Source: Magnetococcales bacterium (GTDB lineage: Bacteria > Pseudomonadota > Magnetococcia > Magnetococcales > UBA8363). From it: a DNA stretch of 64,000 nucleotides. A program made the translations under genes and the position numbers. The stretch is from positions 4,028 through 68,027 of the forward strand of contig JADGCN010000004.1 in the NCBI GenBank assembly GCA_015228975.1. Reading direction: 5' to 3'. Every line of letters begins with the position of its first letter. Position 1 is the stretch's first letter. Below, piece by piece: positions 1,634 to 62,583 of this stretch. The notes under the pieces are model-generated. The model made no database searches and had not been told where the DNA came from. It worked only from the letters and a program-made list of their open reading frames with translations.

Positions 1634-3478
1634 ATGCCCGCTTTAAAATCCCGCACTTCCACCCATGGCCGCAACATGGCGGGGGCACGCGCCTTGTGGC
1701 GTGCCACCGGGATGACGGATGGTGATTTTGGCAAACCCATCATTGCCGTTGCCAATTCGTTTACACAATTCGTCCCGGGTCACGTCCATCTGCGCGATCT
1801 GGGACGCTTGGTGGCCAGCCAGATCGAAGCCAACGGCGCCGTCGCCAAAGAATTCAACACCATCGCCATTGACGACGGAATCGCCATGGGACATGGCGGC
1901 ATGCTGTATTCCCTGCCATCCCGCGACCTCATCGCCGACAGCGTCGAATACATGGTGAACGCCCATACCGCCGATGCCCTGGTGTGCATCTCCAACTGCG
2001 ATAAAATCACCCCCGGCATGCTCATGGCGGTGCTGCGCTTGAATATTCCCGCCGTGTTCGTTTCGGGAGGCCCCATGGAAGCGGGCAAAATGGTCACGGA
2101 TGGCCAAGTGCTACGCAAACTGGATTTGATCGACCCGATGATCGCCGCCGGCAACAACCAGGTCGCCGAACAGGAACTGGCCACCATGGAACGATCCGCC
2201 TGTCCCACCTGCGGCTCCTGCTCGGGATTGTTCACCGCCAATTCCATGAACTGCCTCATGGAAGCCCTGGGTTTGGCGTTACCCGGCAATGGTTCGCTGG
2301 TGGCAACCCATGCGGATCGGAAAAACATGTTTTTGGAAGCGGGCAGACTCATCGTCGAGCTGACCCGGCGCTATTACCTGGAAAACGATACAACGGTTCT
2401 GCCCCGCAGCATTGCCGGGCAAAAAGCCTTTGAAAACGCCATGACCCTGGATATCGCCATGGGGGGATCCACCAATACCGTCTTGCATCTATTGGCGGCA
2501 GCCTCTGAAGCCCGGGTGCCGTTCACCATGACCGATATCGACCGGCTGTCGCGCCAGGTACCGTGCCTGTGTAAAGTGGCCCCCTCCACCGATCGCTACC
2601 ACATGGAAGATGTCCACCGGGCCGGTGGGGTGTTCGCCATCCTGGGGGAATTGGATCGGGCCGGATTGATCCAGCGTGATACCCCGGTGATCCATGCCGC
2701 TTCCCTGGGACAGGCCATCGATCGGGAAGATATCCTTGGCGCGCAAACCTCCGAAGCCGCCCGTAACCGCTACCTGGCCGCCCCGGGCGGCATTCCAACC
2801 ATCGAACCTTTCAGCCAGGACAAACGTTGGCAAAGCCTCGATGTGGATCGTACATCCGGCTGCATCCGCTGTTTCGACCATGCCTACAGCCCCGATGGTG
2901 GCTTGGCCGTGCTGTACGGCAATATTGCCCGGGACGGCTGTATCGTCAAAACCGCCGGGGTCGATGCCTCCATCTGGACATTTGCCGGCCCGGCCCGGGT
3001 ATTTTCCAGCCAGGAAGAGGCGTGCGAGGCGATCCTGAATGATCGCATCCAGGCAGGCGATTGCGTGGTCATTCGTTACGAAGGACCCAAGGGAGGACCC
3101 GGGATGCAGGAAATGTTATACCCAACGAGCTACATCAAATCGAAAAACCTGGGCAAGGCGTGCGCCTTGATCACGGATGGTCGCTTTTCGGGTGGCACAT
3201 CGGGTTTGTCCATCGGACACATCTCCCCGGAAGCGGCGGAAGGTGGTGCCATTGCCTTGATCGAAGAGGGTGATCGGATCACGATCGATATTCGCCAGCG
3301 CTCCATCCAGGTTGCCGTTTCCGATCAGATCCTGGAAGAACGTCGTCGCGCCATGAACCGTTTCGCCCCGGTCGGTCGCAATCGGGTGGTTTCCCAGGCG
3401 TTGCAGGCCTATGCCGCGTTGACGACCTCCGCAGCCCGGGGGGCGGTACGGGACCTGACACAAATTCATAAAATTTGA
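1634..3478 (+). CDS. ilvD: Dihydroxy-acid dehydratase
   Basis: [63 protein letters not shown] before ATG 1634. Confidence 0.98.
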
Positions 3479-4803
3479 AAAATAATCAAACAAAGGCGAT
3501 TGCTTCCATGGGTGTTTCCTCAGGTGTCATCCTGGCCGCTACCCAGTCCCGTTCGGGCAAAACGACCATGACGTTGGCCCTCATGGCGCATCTGGCGAAA
3601 AGAAACATTCCCGTAGCGCCTTTCAAGGCGGGTCCCGATTATCTCGATGGTGCCTGGCACCAGGAGGTCAGTCGGCGACCATCCTATAATCTCGATACCT
3701 TCATGCTGGGAAACGAAGCCTGTCGTACCCTCTACCAGCAAAAAAAAGGTCATGCCCTGGGGGTGGTGGAAGGGGTGATGGGATTGTATGATGGCAAAAG
3801 TGGTGTCGGGGGGACGGGGTCAACCGCCGATCTGGCAAGGGTGTTGGGTCTGCCCGTGCTTTTGGTGGTGAATGTACGCGGCATGGCGGGCTCCCTGGTG
3901 CCCTTGGTACAAGGTTTCGCCGCCGCCGCGCAAGGATTCACCATCGCCGGGATATTGGCCAACCAGGTTGGCTCCGCCCAACATGCCCAACGTTTGTCGG
4001 CATTGCTCGACGACAATCATGCGCCACCCCTGTTGGGATGGATGGGACGCCATGAGCATTTGACCTTGGAAGAACGACACTTGGGATTGACACTGCCCGG
4101 GGAAACATCCTCCCCCCCATGGGAACAACTTGCCGCTGCCCTGCATCTGGATCAAGAACGTTTTACCCACCTGTTTCAACCCACTCCCGCCAGGGAACCA
4201 GACCTTTCGTTGCGTGTCGAACCTTTATTGCAGGGCAAAACCATCGCTGTGGCGCGGGATGCGGCGTTCAGCTTCATCTATACCGCCAATCTGGAATGCT
4301 TGGTGCAGATGGGGGCAACGGTTCATTTTTTTTCACCCCTGGCGGGTAATGCGATTCCTGACGCCTGTAGCGCCATCTGGCTCCCCGGGGGATATCCCGA
4401 GCTGCATGCCGAAAAATTGTCGCAAAGTCGGACATTGCAACAACTAACGCGATTGGGGCAAAACGGAACGTGCATACTGGCCGAATGTGGCGGCATGATG
4501 GCTTTGGGAGAATATTTGGTGGATTTGGCGGGTCGCTCCTGGCCTATGGCAGGACTTTTGCCTATGCAAAGTATCATGACATCCCGTTTGGCGGGTTTGG
4601 GATATCGGCAAGAGGATTCCGGGATGCGCGGCCATGAATTTCACCATTCCATTCGGGAAGCATCCCCGCTGCCGCCGGCGTTTTCCCTGAATCGGGGTGA
4701 TCCGGGCCTGCGTTTGGCCAATGTACGCGCCTCCTACGTTCATTGGTATTTTCCATCGGCACCCCGGGTACTGGCGGCTTGGCTGGGGGGAACCCGTATT
4801 TGA
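3475..4803 (+). CDS. cobB: Cobyrinate a,c-diamide synthase (CobB/CbiA)
   Basis: [41 protein letters not shown]; start may be ATG 3508. Confidence 0.93.
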
Positions 4804-55273: not shown

Positions 55274-55624
55274 ATGCATATCAAGTGGACAAAAGCCGCG
55301 CATGGATTTCAGCAGGCGACTTATCCAAACAAAAAATATCGACTGACCGCCAATCTGATCCAGGAAATTCCCGTTGCGGACAAAATGGAGGAACACACCA
55401 TTCGCCTGGGTCGTGACGATGTGGAAGAACGGTCAGACGGCACGTTGAATTTTTTGTTTGGCAGTCATCTCGCTTTCTGGCCCGAGGTCACCAAAGCACT
55501 CGAAGAAATCAAAGCCTCCCCCGAAGAAGTTGCGGAACTTGTCGCGTCCATGGCGACAATCATCCCCCCACCTCCCAAGGATCAACCACGTCGATTCATT
55601 AATCGTGGCGTTCCAATCAAATAA
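55274..55624 (+). CDS. Hypothetical protein
   Basis: 116-aa ORF with AGGGG RBS, in an operon-like position. Confidence 0.6.
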
Positions 55625-55628
55625 TGAT

Positions 55629-57413
55629 ATGGACGCAACCATAAAAAGTCGCATTCTGAAGGCTACCAACGCCAAAGAAATCATCAAAACAAAATGGATC
55701 CAAAACCTATGGGACAATTATGGCGAACTTCTCAGGATCCATCTTAAAGGTGGAGACATGGCAAGCGTCATATTGAAGCATATCAAACTTCCCTCAAAAC
55801 ATTCCCTCCTGAAAGATCCTGCCTCGGCATTTTCCAATAAAAGAAAGCTCAAATCCTATCAGGTCGAGGCTCATTGGTATGAACAGTACAATAAAATAAA
55901 TCTTAAAGATAACGGTTCGCCAACCGCGAGAAAGTTGGCGCGTTTTCAGGAAAAGGATGAGTTATTCCTGCTGTTGGAAGATTTGGATGCCCTAGGGTTC
56001 GGCAAACGTATTACCATCGCCGGTCTGCAAGAACTTAAAGTGGGATTATCCTGGCTGGCATGTTTTCACGCCAAATTCATGCAACATGGGCATCAGGGAT
56101 TGTGGAACAGTGGCTGCTATTGGCACCTGGAAACGCGACCTGATGAGCTGAAACGATTGCATGATGAGCCATTACGCCAAGCAGCGCCCCTTATTGATCA
56201 AAAGTTAAAAAACACCCGCTATCTCACGATTGTTCATGGGGACGCAAAACTGGCCAATTTTTGTTTCTCCAACGATGCCAGTCACGTCGCAGCCGTTGAC
56301 TTTCAATATGTTGGCAAAGGGTGCGGCATGAAGGATGTCGCCTACTTTGTGGGGAGCTGCCTGAGCGAAGATCGCTGTGAAAAAATGGAAGATATCGTTT
56401 TGGACTTCTATTTTTCCGAATTATTACACAATATAAGCGATCCAAAAATTGATAAACAGGAACTTGAAACCCAATGGCGTGCCTTGTATCCCGTGGCCTG
56501 GGCCGATTTCCACCGCTTCATCAAGGGGTGGAGTCCCGGATATTGGGGGAAAAACTCTTATAGTGAAAAAATAACCCAAAAAGTTACCGCGTCGATTATG
56601 CAGGAATTGCTTGCAACGGCAATCCAGGCCTGCGTCGAAGCCGGAAACATTGTAAAATCCCATTGGAAAAAAAAATTTGCGGTTTCTTCCAAGGAGGGTA
56701 CAACCCGGGCCACTTGTATCGTCACGGAAGTTGATCTGCTCAGTCAAGAAAAAATCACATCCCTTCTCGGGCCAACCATGGAAACTTACAACCTGGGCCT
56801 GCTCGCCGAGGAGGGACGTGACAATAACAGCCGATTGGAGAAAGATTTTTTTTGGAGTGTTGATCCCTTGGACGGAACACTCCCCTTCAGTGAAGGTCAA
56901 TCGGGCTTTGCGGTCACAATTGCCCTCGTCACCAAAACGGGTATTCCCATCATTGGCGTCGTCTATGATCCCATCACCGAGACCCTTTTTCACGCCGTTC
57001 ACAATCAGGGATGCTATCAAAATCATCAACCCTTGCAATTGATAAAAAATACTCCCAATAACGAACCCATCCACTTATTTGCCGACCAAAGTTTGCAACA
57101 AGATCCGGATTATCCAAGTTTTGAGAAAAAGTTTACGATTCATTTTGCCGGGGGTGCGGTCATGAACTCGATCAACGTGTTGTTACATCCCTGTGCATGT
57201 TATTTTAAATATCCCAAAGAAGAAACTGGGGGCTGTGCAATCTGGGACTTGGCAGCGGTTTCTCTTCTATTCAAAGAGGCCGGTGCCGTAATGACAAGCT
57301 TCAAGGGCGATGATTTATCATTCAACCGGGCTGATACTGTATACTTTAACAAAGAAGGGCTTTTCGCCTGTCGCGATGCCAGCCTGATTGAAAAAGTAAA
57401 AAAATTGATTTAG
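55629..57413 (+). CDS. Choline/aminoglycoside-kinase-like phosphotransferase fused to an inositol monophosphatase/CysQ domain
   Basis: HGDAKLANF and VDFQYVG (kinase); VTEVD, LAEE, VDPLDGT, WDLAA (IMPase). Confidence 0.85.
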
Positions 57414-58184: not shown

Positions 58185-58577
58185 TCACGCAGCCTCGAAT
58201 GGGTTGATCAACGTCAGTCCATCCACATTTCTGAAGTCATCAATGTTGCGTGTCATAAGCGGCAAACCATGAGTCAGGGCGGTTGCCGCGATGATGGCAT
58301 CCCCCAGATGAATGACGGAACGGCTCCGCAGCTCAATGGTGGCAGCTACCACACGTCGTTCCAGGGGACATTCATCCAGGCATTCCAGCAGTTTTGTCGC
58401 GCTCTGTCGGCTCTGTTCGGTATGCTTGCACCAGCCCAACAACTCAATGACCGTCACCACCGACACAGCGGATCCCTGAGAAAATGCGGCCAGGAATCGT
58501 TCTCTGAACTGGGCATCTGGATAGTCGTTCAGAAAGTCGATCAAAACGTTGGTGTCCATGAGACAAGGAACACTCAT
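58185..58577 (-). CDS. vapC: VapC PIN-domain toxin
   Basis: MDTNVLID, SVVTVIEL, DAIIAATA, LMTRNIDDF. Confidence 0.92.
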   Translation of the reverse strand: MSVPCLMDTNVLIDFLNDYPDAQFRERFLAAFSQGSAVSVVTVIELLGWCKHTEQSRQSATKLLECLDECPLERRVVAATIELRSRSVIHLGDAIIAATALTHGLPLMTRNIDDFRNVDGLTLINPFEAA

Positions 58578-58834
58578 AATATCCGATCCCATTCATTCCG
58601 CATGTCGGCAAACTCTTTCGCCAATTCTTTCTGGTCCATTTTTGGAAAACTATCCTGTGCCGCCAGTGCTTTTTCCTTCAACTCTTCTGGGGACATGCAG
58701 TCAATCTGCTCCCGCAGTGTTCTCCTAGGGATGGCAGCCTGTTTCTTGACGGCTTCAATGAATTCCAGCACTTGATAGGCTTGTTCTTCCGGCATCCGTT
58801 TGATTTCGGCATAAATGCGTTCGGCGGTATTCAT
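58574..58834 (-). CDS. Putative antitoxin (DUF2281-like)
   Basis: IYAEIKRMPEEQAYQVLEFIE; 4-nt overlap with vapC; ends MRNEWDR. Confidence 0.75.
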   Translation of the reverse strand: MNTAERIYAEIKRMPEEQAYQVLEFIEAVKKQAAIPRRTLREQIDCMSPEELKEKALAAQDSFPKMDQKELAKEFADMRNEWDRIL

Positions 58835-58960: not shown

Positions 58961-59044
58961 AGGCCGGACTGTTACTGTGCAGCCTGGACACCCTGCACGA
59001 AAAAGTTGACAACAAGGCGATGATCCATTAGCGTGGGCTACGTT

Positions 59045-59207
59045 TGTTGCAACCAGGTATCATCAAGGAACACGGTGCAATTCCGTGACGGACCCGCCGC
59101 TGTAACCGGGGACACCTGTCGCAAGGCTTTGGCCAGTCACTCTCTACGCTTTATCGGGGGGAAGACGCGACAAGGTGGTCGATCCGGGAGTCAGAAGACC
59201 TGCTTGG
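59045..59207 (+). promoter_or_regulatory. Cobalamin (B12) riboswitch
   Basis: AGGAACACGGTGCAATTCCGTGACGGACCCGCCGCTGTAA, GGGAAGAC and B12-box GAGTCAGAAGACCTGC. Confidence 0.92.
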
Positions 59208-59232
59208 CTGCCATGTTACGGAATCTATTGGT

Positions 59233-59284
59233 AAAGGATTCCAGATGAGGGCGCGTGCGCCCCTGTCTGGGATCCTTTTTTTTT
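59233..59284 (+). terminator. Intrinsic terminator forming the riboswitch expression platform
   Basis: GGATTCCAGA...TCTGGGATCC hairpin followed by T9, between the aptamer and the first ORF. Confidence 0.85.
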
Positions 59285-59321
59285 GTCCATCGTTTCACCA
59301 ACCTTTACCCGGAGAACATCA

Positions 59322-59483
59322 ATGAATCCAAACCAGACACCAACCCAACAAACCTCGATGCAACAACACCCCACGACTCCCCCTGGACGCATCGTCGACG
59401 AAGTCATCGCCCAACGCAAAAGCTGCTCCGCCGATGGCATTGGCTTGTCCCACTACATCCTGATGGATCGGAAAGATAAATGA
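59322..59483 (+). CDS. cbpA: Modified-peptide precursor, CbpA-like (53 aa)
   Basis: GGAG RBS; C-terminal VIAQRKSCSADGIGLSHYILMD resembles the CbpA family as recalled; ATGA-coupled to the rSAM gene. Confidence 0.8.
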   Translation: MNPNQTPTQQTSMQQHPTTPPGRIVDEVIAQRKSCSADGIGLSHYILMDRKDK

Positions 59484-60898
59484 TTACCAACGCAATAGGA
59501 ACCGCGACGCCGTTTGTCAATACGGGTGCTGGTCCCCTCCTGATTCCCCTGGAGATCAACCACCCATCCCACCTGGCCGTGGTGGATCCCGATACGGCTT
59601 TTTGGGCCATCGTACGTAAAGATCGCCTGGCCGATCTCATTGCTGGCAGCAATGTGGTCGAAACGTACCGGCAACGGATGGATATCTGCGCCAGTGAAAT
59701 GCAGGGGCTGCGTTTTGGATTAAAACCATCGGCCGTCTATTTCAATGCCACCGACCGCTGCAATCTTGACTGTTCCTATTGTTATATTCCCCGTGACATG
59801 CGTCGCAGCGGGGAACAAATGTCCGAAGCCCGCCTGCTGGAATCCCTGGCACTCCTGCGGGACTATTTCGCCAGTCACATGCCGGCCCACCGACGTCCGA
59901 GAATCATCTTCCACGGTGCGGAACCTTTGCTTAACTTTAAAGCAATCCGGGCGGGAATTCTCGCCTTTGAAAAACAATTTTTGTTCGGCGTGCAAACCAA
60001 TGCCACCCTGCTCGACGATGCCACCCTGCAATTCCTGACCGATCACCAGGTCAGTATCGGCTTATCATTGGATGGACCGACCGCCGAAATCACCAATCGC
60101 ACCCGAAAAGGGTGGCATGGTCCCGGGGATGTCCATGAATCGGTGATCCGCGCCATGGAAAAATTGCGCGGTTATCCCGGATATAGCGTCATCGTCACCA
60201 TTACCCGCGAAAACGTTGCCCAGTTGACACCCCTGATCACATTGCTGCACAGCCATGGCGTACCGGGCTGTCTTCTGAACGCCACCCGTTGCACCCTCCC
60301 CGGGGCTCGGGAGGTTAGAGTCGCGGATGAGGCCTTGGCTGACCCTTTCATCCGCGCCCTGGAATACAATGATGAACTGTTCAAAAAAACTGGACACAAA
60401 ATGGTGGTGGCCAATTTTGCCAATATTCTCCTCGCCATTCTCGCCCCCACGGCACGGCGCCTGATGTGTGACATCTCCCCCTGCGGTGGGGGGCGCGCCT
60501 TCTTTGCCCTGGCCGCCAACGGGGATCTGTTCCCTTGCAGCGAATTCATCGGCCTGGACTCCTTCCGGGGCGGCAATCTTTTTCAAGATGGCGTGGAAGC
60601 CGCCTTGCTCAGTTCCGCCTTTGCCGCTGTGACCCGTCGCGATGTCGATCATATCAACCCGTGCAGTCGTTGCGCCATTCGCCACTATTGCGGATCACCC
60701 TGTCCCGCCGAAGCTCACGAAATGAATGGTGGCATGGACCAGATCGGCGCTTTTTGTCACTTCTACGAAGAACAAGTGCGCTTTGCCTTCCGCCTGATCG
60801 CCGATGGCAGGGCCAATGATTTCCTCTGGGATCATTGGGACAGTGCCGATGGTATGGAAACAATCTTCGACCTATCCGGTGCCGTAACCGCCACATGA
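59480..60898 (+). CDS. cbpB: Peptide-modifying radical SAM/SPASM enzyme, CbpB-like
   Basis: CNLDCSYC; FHGAEP; SPASM Cys set CDISPCGGG...CSEF...CSRCAIRHYCGSPCP...C. Confidence 0.88.
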   Translation: MITNAIGTATPFVNTGAGPLLIPLEINHPSHLAVVDPDTAFWAIVRKDRLADLIAGSNVVETYRQRMDICASEMQGLRFGLKPSAVYFNATDRCNLDCSYCYIPRDMRRSGEQMSEARLLESLALLRDYFASHMPAHRRPRIIFHGAEPLLNFKAIRAGILAFEKQFLFGVQTNATLLDDATLQFLTDHQVSIGLSLDGPTAEITNRTRKGWHGPGDVHESVIRAMEKLRGYPGYSVIVTITRENVAQLTPLITLLHSHGVPGCLLNATRCTLPGAREVRVADEALADPFIRALEYNDELFKKTGHKMVVANFANILLAILAPTARRLMCDISPCGGGRAFFALAANGDLFPCSEFIGLDSFRGGNLFQDGVEAALLSSAFAAVTRRDVDHINPCSRCAIRHYCGSPCPAEAHEMNGGMDQIGAFCHFYEEQVRFAFRLIADGRANDFLWDHWDSADGMETIFDLSGAVTAT

Positions 60899-61089: not shown

Positions 61090-62064
61090 ATGGCAGTCGA
61101 TGACACCCTGATCAAACTGGTATTCAACTTTTGGACAGGACTGGCCATTGTCATCCTGGTCGTCCTGAAAAATGGTCTGCAATTCGTCCCGCAAAACCGC
61201 GCCCTGGTGGTCGAACGCTTCGGTAAATATCATACGACGCTCACCGCCGGTATCAACTTCATCATGCCGTTCATCGATAAGGTCGCCTACAACCAAACCT
61301 TGAAGGAAATGGCAGTCGATGTCCCCGGCCAGTCGGCCATCACCAAAGATAACATCGCCCTGGAAGTCGATGGTATCCTCTATACCAAAATCATCGATCC
61401 CTACAAAGCTTCCTACGGCATCGAAAATTTTGCCTTTGCCGTCACGCAACTGGCGCAAACGACCATGCGTTCCGAAATCGGTAAACTGGAATTGGACAAA
61501 ACCTTTGAAGAACGGGTAACCTTGAATTCGGCCATCGTCAGTGCCATCAACGAGGCCGCCAGCCCCTGGGGGATTCAGGTCTTGCGTTTTGAAATCAAAG
61601 ATATCAAACCACCCAAGACCGTTCTGGAAGCCATGGAACGCCAGATGAAGGCGGAACGGGAAAAACGGGCCGCAGTCTTGGAATCGGAAGGATTGCGCGA
61701 GGCGGCCATCAACAAAGCCGAAGGGGAAAAACGCTCCAAAGTATTGGCCGCGGAAGCGGATCGATCCCAGGCCATCCTCCGGGCCGAAGGGGAAGCCCTG
61801 GCCATCACCACCGTGGCCGATGCCAAAGCCCGCGCCCTGCAAACCATAGGAGACTCCGCCGCCTCCCCGGAAGGGCAAATAGCGGTTCAATTCGACTTGG
61901 CCAGCCATGCCATTCAGGCCAAAGAAGCCATCGCCAGACACAGTTCGGTCGTCCTCATGGACGCCAACAGCACCTCGACCGCCCATACCGTCGCCGAAGC
62001 CATGGCCATTCTTGCCGCCATCAACCAAAGCGGCGTCCTCAACCCAAAATCCAGCGCTACCTGA
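61090..62064 (+). CDS. SPFH/band-7 (QmcA/paraslipin-like) protein
   Basis: VVERFGKY, ITKDN, QLAQTTMRSEIG, WGIQVLRFEIKDI, AEREKRA. Confidence 0.93.
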   Translation: MAVDDTLIKLVFNFWTGLAIVILVVLKNGLQFVPQNRALVVERFGKYHTTLTAGINFIMPFIDKVAYNQTLKEMAVDVPGQSAITKDNIALEVDGILYTKIIDPYKASYGIENFAFAVTQLAQTTMRSEIGKLELDKTFEERVTLNSAIVSAINEAASPWGIQVLRFEIKDIKPPKTVLEAMERQMKAEREKRAAVLESEGLREAAINKAEGEKRSKVLAAEADRSQAILRAEGEALAITTVADAKARALQTIGDSAASPEGQIAVQFDLASHAIQAKEAIARHSSVVLMDANSTSTAHTVAEAMAILAAINQSGVLNPKSSAT

Positions 62065-62088
62065 CGGGTATTTCGATACGGAGCCTCC

Positions 62089-62583
62089 ATGGAGTTACAA
62101 TCCATCATCCATTACCTCGACAGCCATCGCGATGCCCTGTGGTTTTCCATCGGCTTCGGACTCCTGGCCCTGGAGGCCGGCGTGTTCGGTTTTTCCAGCG
62201 GCATGCTGCTCTTTACCGGATTGGCAGCCCTTGTCACCGGACTCCTGATCACCTTGGGTATCCTCTCTGGTGCCCCCACCCCCGCCATCGCCCTCTTTGC
62301 CGTGACCTCGCTGGTTCTGGCCGCACTCTTTTGGAAATGGTTCCGCCGCCTTCATCACGGTCCCGCCCGTCCCCAGGCGCCGGTCAGCGATTTCGTGGGT
62401 CTCCGATTCACCCTCAAGCAGGATGTCAGTCTGTTGGAAAATGGTGTGGAGCGCTACTCGGGCATCGATTGGCGCGTCCTGCCCGACCCATCCGTGGGTT
62501 CGCGTATCCTGCCCCGTGGCACTCAGGTGGAAGTCTCCGCCCTGGATGCTGGAATCCTTTACGTGCGACCCCTGGTTCCTTAA
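62089..62583 (+). CDS. NfeD-like membrane protein
   Basis: Three TMs (LLALEAG...), C-terminal OB-like YSGIDWRV...VEV; adjacent to SPFH. Confidence 0.85.
   Translation: MELQSIIHYLDSHRDALWFSIGFGLLALEAGVFGFSSGMLLFTGLAALVTGLLITLGILSGAPTPAIALFAVTSLVLAALFWKWFRRLHHGPARPQAPVSDFVGLRFTLKQDVSLLENGVERYSGIDWRVLPDPSVGSRILPRGTQVEVSALDAGILYVRPLVP

Follow-up and report, generated by a model that had tools for sequence, protein, structure and literature searches.

The cofactors PQQ (pyrroloquinoline quinone) and mycofactocin start from a short peptide and a SPASM enzyme dependent on a RiPP recognition element (RRE; RiPP, ribosomally synthesised and post-translationally modified peptide), which turn conserved C-terminal residues into a small cofactor piece; their operons carry dedicated peptidases and tailoring genes. 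Here we analyse another pairing of a peptide, CbpA, with a radical SAM/SPASM enzyme, CbpB, encoded at 59045..60898 of a 64,000-nt window (the whole stretch of DNA that was analysed) of contig JADGCN010000004.1 from a Magnetococcales bacterium (GCA_015228975.1), and preceded by a corrinoid riboswitch. The CbpA and CbpB families were reportedly introduced by Haft and Basu in 2011. A search by family names and accessions found no function or regulation for them in the literature, in agreement with the preliminary description of this locus, which had regarded the pair as uncharacterised.

Whether a microbe can use a particular cobamide depends on the lower base. According to PMC6461909, 42% of predicted cobamide producers have no assignable lower-ligand gene, and according to PMC3573010 BluB requires O2. 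The closest regulatory precedent is the cobT riboswitch of Alkalihalobacillus halodurans, for which activation by cobinamide was shown through mutagenesis by Procknow et al. (PMC10653944); it is the only natural activating corrinoid riboswitch that we found in print. Regulon, genome profile and gene order together point to CbpAB as a likely lower-base supplier. Stated in full, our proposal is that CbpAB gives a bza-independent and O2-independent supply of the lower base of B12 and is switched on by a build-up of unfinished corrinoid, a reading towards which we lean, if narrowly.

The cbpAB leader and its predicted response to corrinoids

The preliminary description had recognised an aptamer, a terminator, a 53-aa peptide and a translationally coupled radical SAM/SPASM enzyme, an anatomy confirmed by Rfam, by folding and by the TIGR04164 and TIGR04163 profiles. 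The cobalamin (corrinoid) aptamer (59038..59221, +) matches RF00174 with 79.8 bits against a gathering threshold of 31.5, as the proposed Rfam scan was expected to reveal. It lies upstream of cbpA on the same strand, has very short P2/P3 regions and is the sole Rfam match in the window, no further riboswitch having been found in the 76%-complete host genome (150 of 234 candidates scored). It is followed by the P13 hairpin (59220..59242, +; 5' arm 59220-59226, loop L13 59227-59235, 3' arm 59236-59242) and by an intrinsic terminator (59235..59284, +), the hairpin of which (59235-59276) folds with -29 kcal/mol (z -4.78, 0/200 shuffles equally stable), shows covariation and leads into a 9-T tract at 59276-59284; a simple terminator scan did not call this hairpin. 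The 53-aa precursor peptide gene cbpA (59322..59483, +) has a GGAG at 59311-59314, and its stop overlaps, as ATGA, the start of cbpB (59480..60898, +), which encodes 472 aa.

The motif TGGT in L13 (59229-59232; UGGU in the RNA) is complementary to ACCCG in loop L5 of the aptamer (59092-59096), one C being bulged. The 3' arm of P13 (59236-59242) also forms part of the 5' arm of the terminator, rendering the two helices mutually exclusive. In ligand-free folding the terminator reaches a base-pair probability of 1.0 once it is transcribed and P13 is dominant at some shorter transcript lengths; when P13 is forced, folding predicts a cost of 11 kcal/mol and a remaining hairpin detached from the U-tract. 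Aptamer-terminator duplexes reach -11.8 and -16.9 kcal/mol at best, far short of the stability of the terminator, and P13 is the one conserved helix that competes with the latter. Neither the separate P13 nor the third antiterminator helix that define the repressing corrinoid riboswitch of the P. megaterium metE type was recovered; P13/terminator exclusivity and L5-L13 complementarity are the structural hallmarks of the activating switch of A. halodurans cobT. Since P13 and the terminator exclude each other, bound corrinoid is predicted to give read-through, and the modelled RNA structure makes it very probable that the switch is of ON polarity, i.e. that corrinoid activates cbpAB transcription. 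The peptide had been supposed to be made under B12 limitation, perhaps as a substitute cofactor; given the predicted corrinoid-induced read-through, the first supposition is probably backwards and the second unlikely.

This layout recurs in the cbpAB loci retrieved with the best 80 of 561 CbpB relatives from a genome scan, which are counted here and below without correction for kinship, so that related loci are not independent. Of 81 loci, 69 have the motif of P13, L13 and shared arm; in 65 of these the shared arm also becomes part of a downstream hairpin, and 57 have a U-tract. The first base of L5 is a Watson-Crick match to its L13 partner in 53/66 loci (permutation mean 31), and the P13 and terminator helices covary in 22 aligned leaders, with 0/500 shuffles reaching either score. 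The 12 loci without the motif comprise two without cbpA, three with an aptamer but no motif match and seven without a recognised aptamer core, namely two truncated loci, three inside operons, one without a switch and one divergent but with an Rfam match. Fourteen mostly alphaproteobacterial loci (L005-L008, L025, L031, L038, L044, L045, L047, L059, L065, L069, L074) nearly all have no U-tract, and their P13 5' arm and L13 can pair with the ribosome-site region at -7 to -12 kcal/mol, a pairing found in the minimum free energy (MFE) structure of 7/14 and marked in L074 by a matching double change. The leaders of these loci appear converted to translational ON switches, the same sign being reached by a different mechanism.

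Metagenomes were scanned with the aptamer and loop motifs alone, regardless of which gene followed, and gave at least 121 switches in at least 120 loci; a switch was called ON by an MFE rule (the P13 arm switches into a hairpin, then a U-tract follows). Among the metagenome switches listed, the ON layout precedes cbpAB in 19/23 cases, bzaF in 7/8 and cobT in 12/15 (19/23 for the last two together), and is found in none of the 23 before uptake, cobalt, ring, pilin-like and cobC/O genes, including 0/6 for cobalt-uptake and chelatase genes; under a stricter rule the contrast is 31/54 vs 3/23. Switches without an assigned downstream gene are ON-type in 10 of 44 cases. Loci of the BzaF-type clade of ThiC homologues, delimited below, were also scanned in genomes: 7 of 18 have a cobalamin switch directly upstream (L128, L130, L139, L148, L158, L159, L160), and all seven are ON-type by inspection. 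This activating layout suggests that bzaF itself is corrinoid-induced.

The same scan brought out other downstream genes. In six loci (L186, L205, L214, L217, L243, L299; ON layout in 6/6) the switch is followed by a Zn-dependent dehydrogenase that is threonine-dehydrogenase-like, below cut-offs, and in five of them by a TrpD-like phosphoribosyltransferase gene, L299 being too short; the pair is a candidate base-activating or remodelling module. We rejected it as another substitute for bzaF, as three of the seven carriers of the TrpD-like gene among 201 genomes of one phylum (see below) have bzaF; none has cbpB. Two further loci (ON layout in 2/2) have a small membrane protein without family match; the gene after it is UbiD-family decarboxylase-like in L231 and hydantoinase/caprolactamase-like in L255, and these pairs possibly take up and convert a precursor of the lower base, for example a phenolic. 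Non-ON cobalamin switches precede prepilin-type N-methylation/DUF1559-like genes in five loci, assigned by Pfam matches (L193, L234, L288) or by the N-terminal motif (L215, L297).

The peptide, the enzyme and their genomic company

The suggested hidden Markov model search bore out the family assignment, CbpA scoring 53.8 bits (cut-off 35) against TIGR04164 (cobo_pep) and CbpB 645.9 bits (cut-off 375) against TIGR04163 (rSAM_cobopep). CbpA combines a variable Q/T/P-rich N-terminus with a conserved end, R-x-x-C-x(4-6)-G-x-GLSH[YF]. R32, C35, G39, G41, L42, S43 and H44 are invariant in 65 aligned peptides, the rows having been chosen by the GLSH motif, and the final Tyr is replaced by Phe in 2 of 78 distinct peptides. 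The spacing from Cys to GLSH is 6, 7 or 8; the Cys, although conserved, does not keep register with GLSHY. Comparison of the GLSHY codons of the window with those of 82 distinct homologous DNA stretches gave 218 codons with synonymous and 2 with non-synonymous differences; as the rows were chosen by that motif, only the synonymous excess is informative. One cbpA (L056:7477-7962) has two tandem copies of the conserved core, which is the expectation if every core gives one product. Longer, fused forms were not seen among 312 candidates, which is weak evidence. The peptide gene lies upstream of cbpB in 78/80 loci, and in the other two cbpB begins at the locus edge.

CbpB contains a CxxxCxxC motif (C94, C98, C101) and eight invariant Cys in the SPASM region, and is predicted to start with an RRE-like domain, to judge from three strands and helices at residues 22-79 and from a full-length match to CteB; with the motif, the SPASM Cys set and this putative domain it has the features of a RiPP radical SAM/SPASM enzyme. 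Its alignment-based AlphaFold2 model reaches a mean predicted local distance difference test score (pLDDT) of 89.9, and a single-sequence prediction only 39. Among the best 80 of 561 relatives, the closest named ones (85% and 82%) are metagenome-assembled genomes of Magnetococcales, and others come from proteobacteria, planctomycetes, verrucomicrobia and chloroflexi, among others; named culturable carriers are Azospira oryzae, Aromatoleum, Magnetospirillum and Rhodoblastus.

The link to B12 metabolism drawn in the preliminary description is supported by the company that cbpAB keeps. Neighbours within 8 kb of cbpB were counted by tblastn in the 80 loci, and 25 of these have B12 synthesis genes. 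The pair is followed by cobT in L012, L063 and L114 (cobT-cobS-cobD-cbiB), is divergent from cobC-cobU-cobT-cobS in L049, L062, L076 and L079, and has cbiB, cobD or cbiP near it in several loci. The host genome itself encodes the anaerobic ring genes, cbiB, cobU/T/C/S, a second cobT and one ThiC, its cob genes, apart from a cbiA/cobB-like one in the window, being spread over contigs C218, C99, C168, C111 and C234; bluB had no match in this 76%-complete assembly.

Co-occurrence was followed in 201 genomes of the anaerobic phylum to which the genome of L077 belongs, the centre genome of the sample being itself cbpB-positive. Of these genomes, 19 carry cbpB, 87 carry cbiC and 32 have two genes of the ThiC family; cbiC accompanies cbpB in 17/19 genomes vs 70/182 of the others, and a second ThiC-family gene was found in none of the 19. 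A quick tree was used because NCBIfam could not tell BzaF from ThiC, both ThiC-family copies being taken from 21 of the 32 two-copy genomes. In 20 of these 21 exactly one sequence falls in a long-branch, 100%-supported BzaF-type clade, which is tied to cob operons (six members are no more than about 7 kb away from cbiC); the two G241 copies are plain duplicates. The 29 cbpB genomes in the tree, among them all 19 from the phylum sample, contributed 30 ThiC-family sequences, none of which belongs to that clade, and cbpB genomes are sister to bzaF genomes at several places in the tree. Among the cbiC genomes, a BzaF-type gene thus occurs in 0/17 with cbpB; of the 70 without it, 20 have a verified BzaF-type gene, or 25 if presumed ones are included (p 0.009-0.002).

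The wider samples were as follows. A distinct second ThiC paralogue was found in none of 50 of the 80 cbpB genomes, the one genome with two full-length copies having near-identical ThiC duplicates. In the class of the host cbpB is present in 10/56 genomes, cbiC in 9 of these vs 19/46 others, and a second ThiC copy in 0/56; the single ThiC of the host lies outside the BzaF-type clade and CbpB is not ThiC-like, so that neither mark of the bza pathway was seen. In the class of the genome of L049, bzaF was found in 0/151 genomes with one query and no positive control, and cbpB in 4/151.

A proposed lower-base supply and the alternatives to it

The mechanism that we propose would run as follows. 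With no ligand the terminator would form as the default fold; bound corrinoid would lock the L5-L13 kissing loop, keep P13 and remove the lower 7 base pairs of the terminator, with read-through as the result. Judging from A. halodurans cobT, the inducer may be cobinamide or another unfinished corrinoid, which would accumulate where the O2-dependent BluB is idle or absent. CbpB would then bind CbpA via its RRE-like domain and oxidise or cross-link the invariant Cys/Ser-His-Tyr(Phe) end, as the genomic data hint, and general peptidases might free an N-heterocyclic base, with the His imidazole as the obvious, if speculative, donor, for CobT to attach. CbpAB would in this way stand in for BzaF. 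The broader proposal, that CbpAB builds the lower base from a ribosomal peptide, so adding to BluB and Bza a third route, which cobinamide induces via widespread activating riboswitches that mark lower-base supply genes (cbpAB, bzaF, cobT and further modules) across anaerobic phyla, is tentative, and we hold it possible but short of probable.

Several observations weigh against a supply of the lower base by CbpAB. As to gene order, ring, cobalt or adenosylation genes lie near cbpB in 21 of the 80 loci and loop genes in only 13, with neither ring-type nor loop genes in 55. In L028, L029 and L052 cbpAB is placed between cbiF and cbiX in ring-synthesis operons without a switch of its own, and can therefore be expressed with ring synthesis, not via its own switch. 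Across the loci, neither a protease nor a tailoring gene was found to be conserved beside cbpAB, the distance between Cys and GLSH is variable, and the expense of a 30-55-aa peptide for each base is costly. As to the regulon, the ON layout also precedes the Zn-dehydrogenase/TrpD-like pair, so that it is wider than base synthesis, and one metagenomic bzaF-cobT operon (L225) has a non-ON layout. As to genome profiles, a single phylum showed the exclusion of bzaF, and the BzaF label depends on the tree and on gene context, as the two families were not separated by NCBIfam; many cbiC genomes, moreover, have neither bzaF nor cbpB, 44 of the 70 without cbpB in the phylum sample having no second ThiC copy. 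Finally, bluB is present in 5/7 same-genus relatives of the host, and its lack in the host may therefore be an assembly gap; it is also present in 34/50 cbpB genomes. A simple replacement of bluB by cbpAB was rejected, both being found in those 34 genomes. The model thus needs an aerobic/anaerobic split to explain the overlap: BluB needs O2 and many of the named cbpB carriers are, as we take them to be, facultative anaerobes, which would explain why the two genes are found together.

Part of this evidence can be read in another way. Modified CbpA could be a cobinamide-binding partner, its His (and Cys) ligating the cobalt so that the peptide buffers cobinamide or hands it over to the loop-assembly enzymes, and cells with bzaF, which would not accumulate cobinamide, would have no need for it. 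The ON layout, the exclusion of bzaF and the link to ring synthesis fit this role equally well, and so do the invariance of His44 and Cys35 and the lack of a nearby protease or exporter. What makes us consider it unlikely is that the other identified genes behind the ON layout mostly make or activate the base (bzaF, cobT) and that direct cbpAB-cobT operons suggest a metabolic hand-over. The idea of a cobalt/corrinoid chaperone in the preliminary description is divided by the same data: its cobalt half fits poorly because in the metagenome sample the other layout precedes the genes for cobalt uptake and chelatase, and corrinoid binding via the invariant His is possible.

CbpAB might instead, still under corrinoid induction, take part in a different step late in the assembly or remodelling of cobamides, for instance by supplying the linker or by modifying a purine or benzimidazole base, e.g. 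with sulfur from the peptide Cys. The Zn-dehydrogenase/TrpD-like pair and the UbiD- or hydantoinase-like genes behind ON layouts are in line with such a step, as are cbiB, cobD and cbiP near several loci and a Cys that is conserved out of register with GLSHY. We find this role rather improbable, as it leaves the specific exclusion of bzaF unexplained and the host already has cbiB and cobU/T/C/S. Least probable of all is the earlier view of a repressing switch and a cross-linked peptide serving as cobalt chelator, chaperone or substitute cofactor under B12 scarcity: all corrinoid switches but one repress in the study of PMC10653944, three loci embed cbpAB beside cbiM, cbiF or cbiX behind operon-head switches of the other layout, and Cys and His are metal ligands, but the terminator predicted to form without ligand at a probability of 1.0, the far weaker aptamer-terminator duplexes, P13 as sole conserved competitor, the non-ON layout before cobalt-uptake and chelatase genes, and the tracking of B12 producers rather than of B12-independent life by cbpB all speak against it.

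In profile scans of the neighbours no transporter, protease or cob gene was found adjoining cbpAB in the window, as noted before. Directly upstream of the switch lies a vapBC-like toxin-antitoxin pair with a PIN domain (58185-58834, -), and about 190 nt downstream of cbpB an SPFH/band-7 gene and an NfeD-like gene (61090-62583, +), an RlmJ-family gene being next. We set aside both pairs as functional partners, for they are not beside cbpB in the two closest relatives. Farther away, a lone cbiA/cobB-like gene is located at about 3475-4800 (+), some 55 kb upstream of the locus, and an open reading frame of 651 aa (55458-57413, +), in which a kinase-like N-terminal part appears by eye to be joined to an inositol-monophosphatase-like part, lies in a stretch of lower GC content (46% vs 53%).

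CbpAB beside known systems

At the protein level we saw no difference between the window pair, adjacent, coupled and above both cut-offs, and the TIGR04164/TIGR04163 families. The best fold and sequence matches of CbpB are CteB (5WHY) and anSME (4K36), at about 20% identity. CbpB and the ranthipeptide maturase CteB have in common the layout of RRE, radical SAM and SPASM domains. Near the active site, however, CbpB has Y102, H145, Q172, S196, S354 and E355 at the positions of F, F, T, S, H and Q in CteB, and the equivalent of His363, expected of a CteB-type ranthi- or sactipeptide synthase, is a Ser. With only 1/6 of these residues kept, thioether chemistry of the CteB type is not the default guess. 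The eight invariant Cys of CbpB align roughly with the SPASM Cys of anSME, which suggests that CbpB may have no open site for a substrate thiol. Peptidase or tailoring genes of the kind found with PQQ and mycofactocin are not conserved beside cbpAB.

The pair had been catalogued before, and one activating switch built in this way had been published. The connection between cbpAB and such a switch, the wider ON regulon and the exclusion of bzaF did not appear in the papers that our literature searches brought up. If CbpAB makes the base, part of the 42% gap would be filled, with a piece of B12 derived from a peptide, for which we found no precedent. The layout, which dozens of genomes share, separates base-supply genes from uptake and ring genes, and this offers a simple mining route for missing B12 genes, and the culturable carriers make the claims on the ON switch and on the base directly testable.

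Like BzaF and BzaAB (PMC6461909, PMC8123684), CbpAB involves radical SAM chemistry, is found in anaerobic B12 producers, is linked to cobT and has an ON-type switch in front; BzaF, however, is paralogous to ThiC and has aminoimidazole ribotide as its substrate, and CbpB is a SPASM maturase without such homology. The two enzymes were not found together in the genomes sampled. The window switch has in common with that of A. halodurans cobT (PMC10653944) the arm shared by P13 and terminator and a bulged, four-pair L5-L13 kissing loop, which is GCCCG/UGGC in A. halodurans and ACCCG/UGGU here. The A. halodurans switch controls a lower-ligand gene, whereas the one in the window precedes a peptide-maturase pair in a proteobacterial host and has very short P2/P3 regions; and where that study presents one natural activating case, the layout described here is widespread across phyla.

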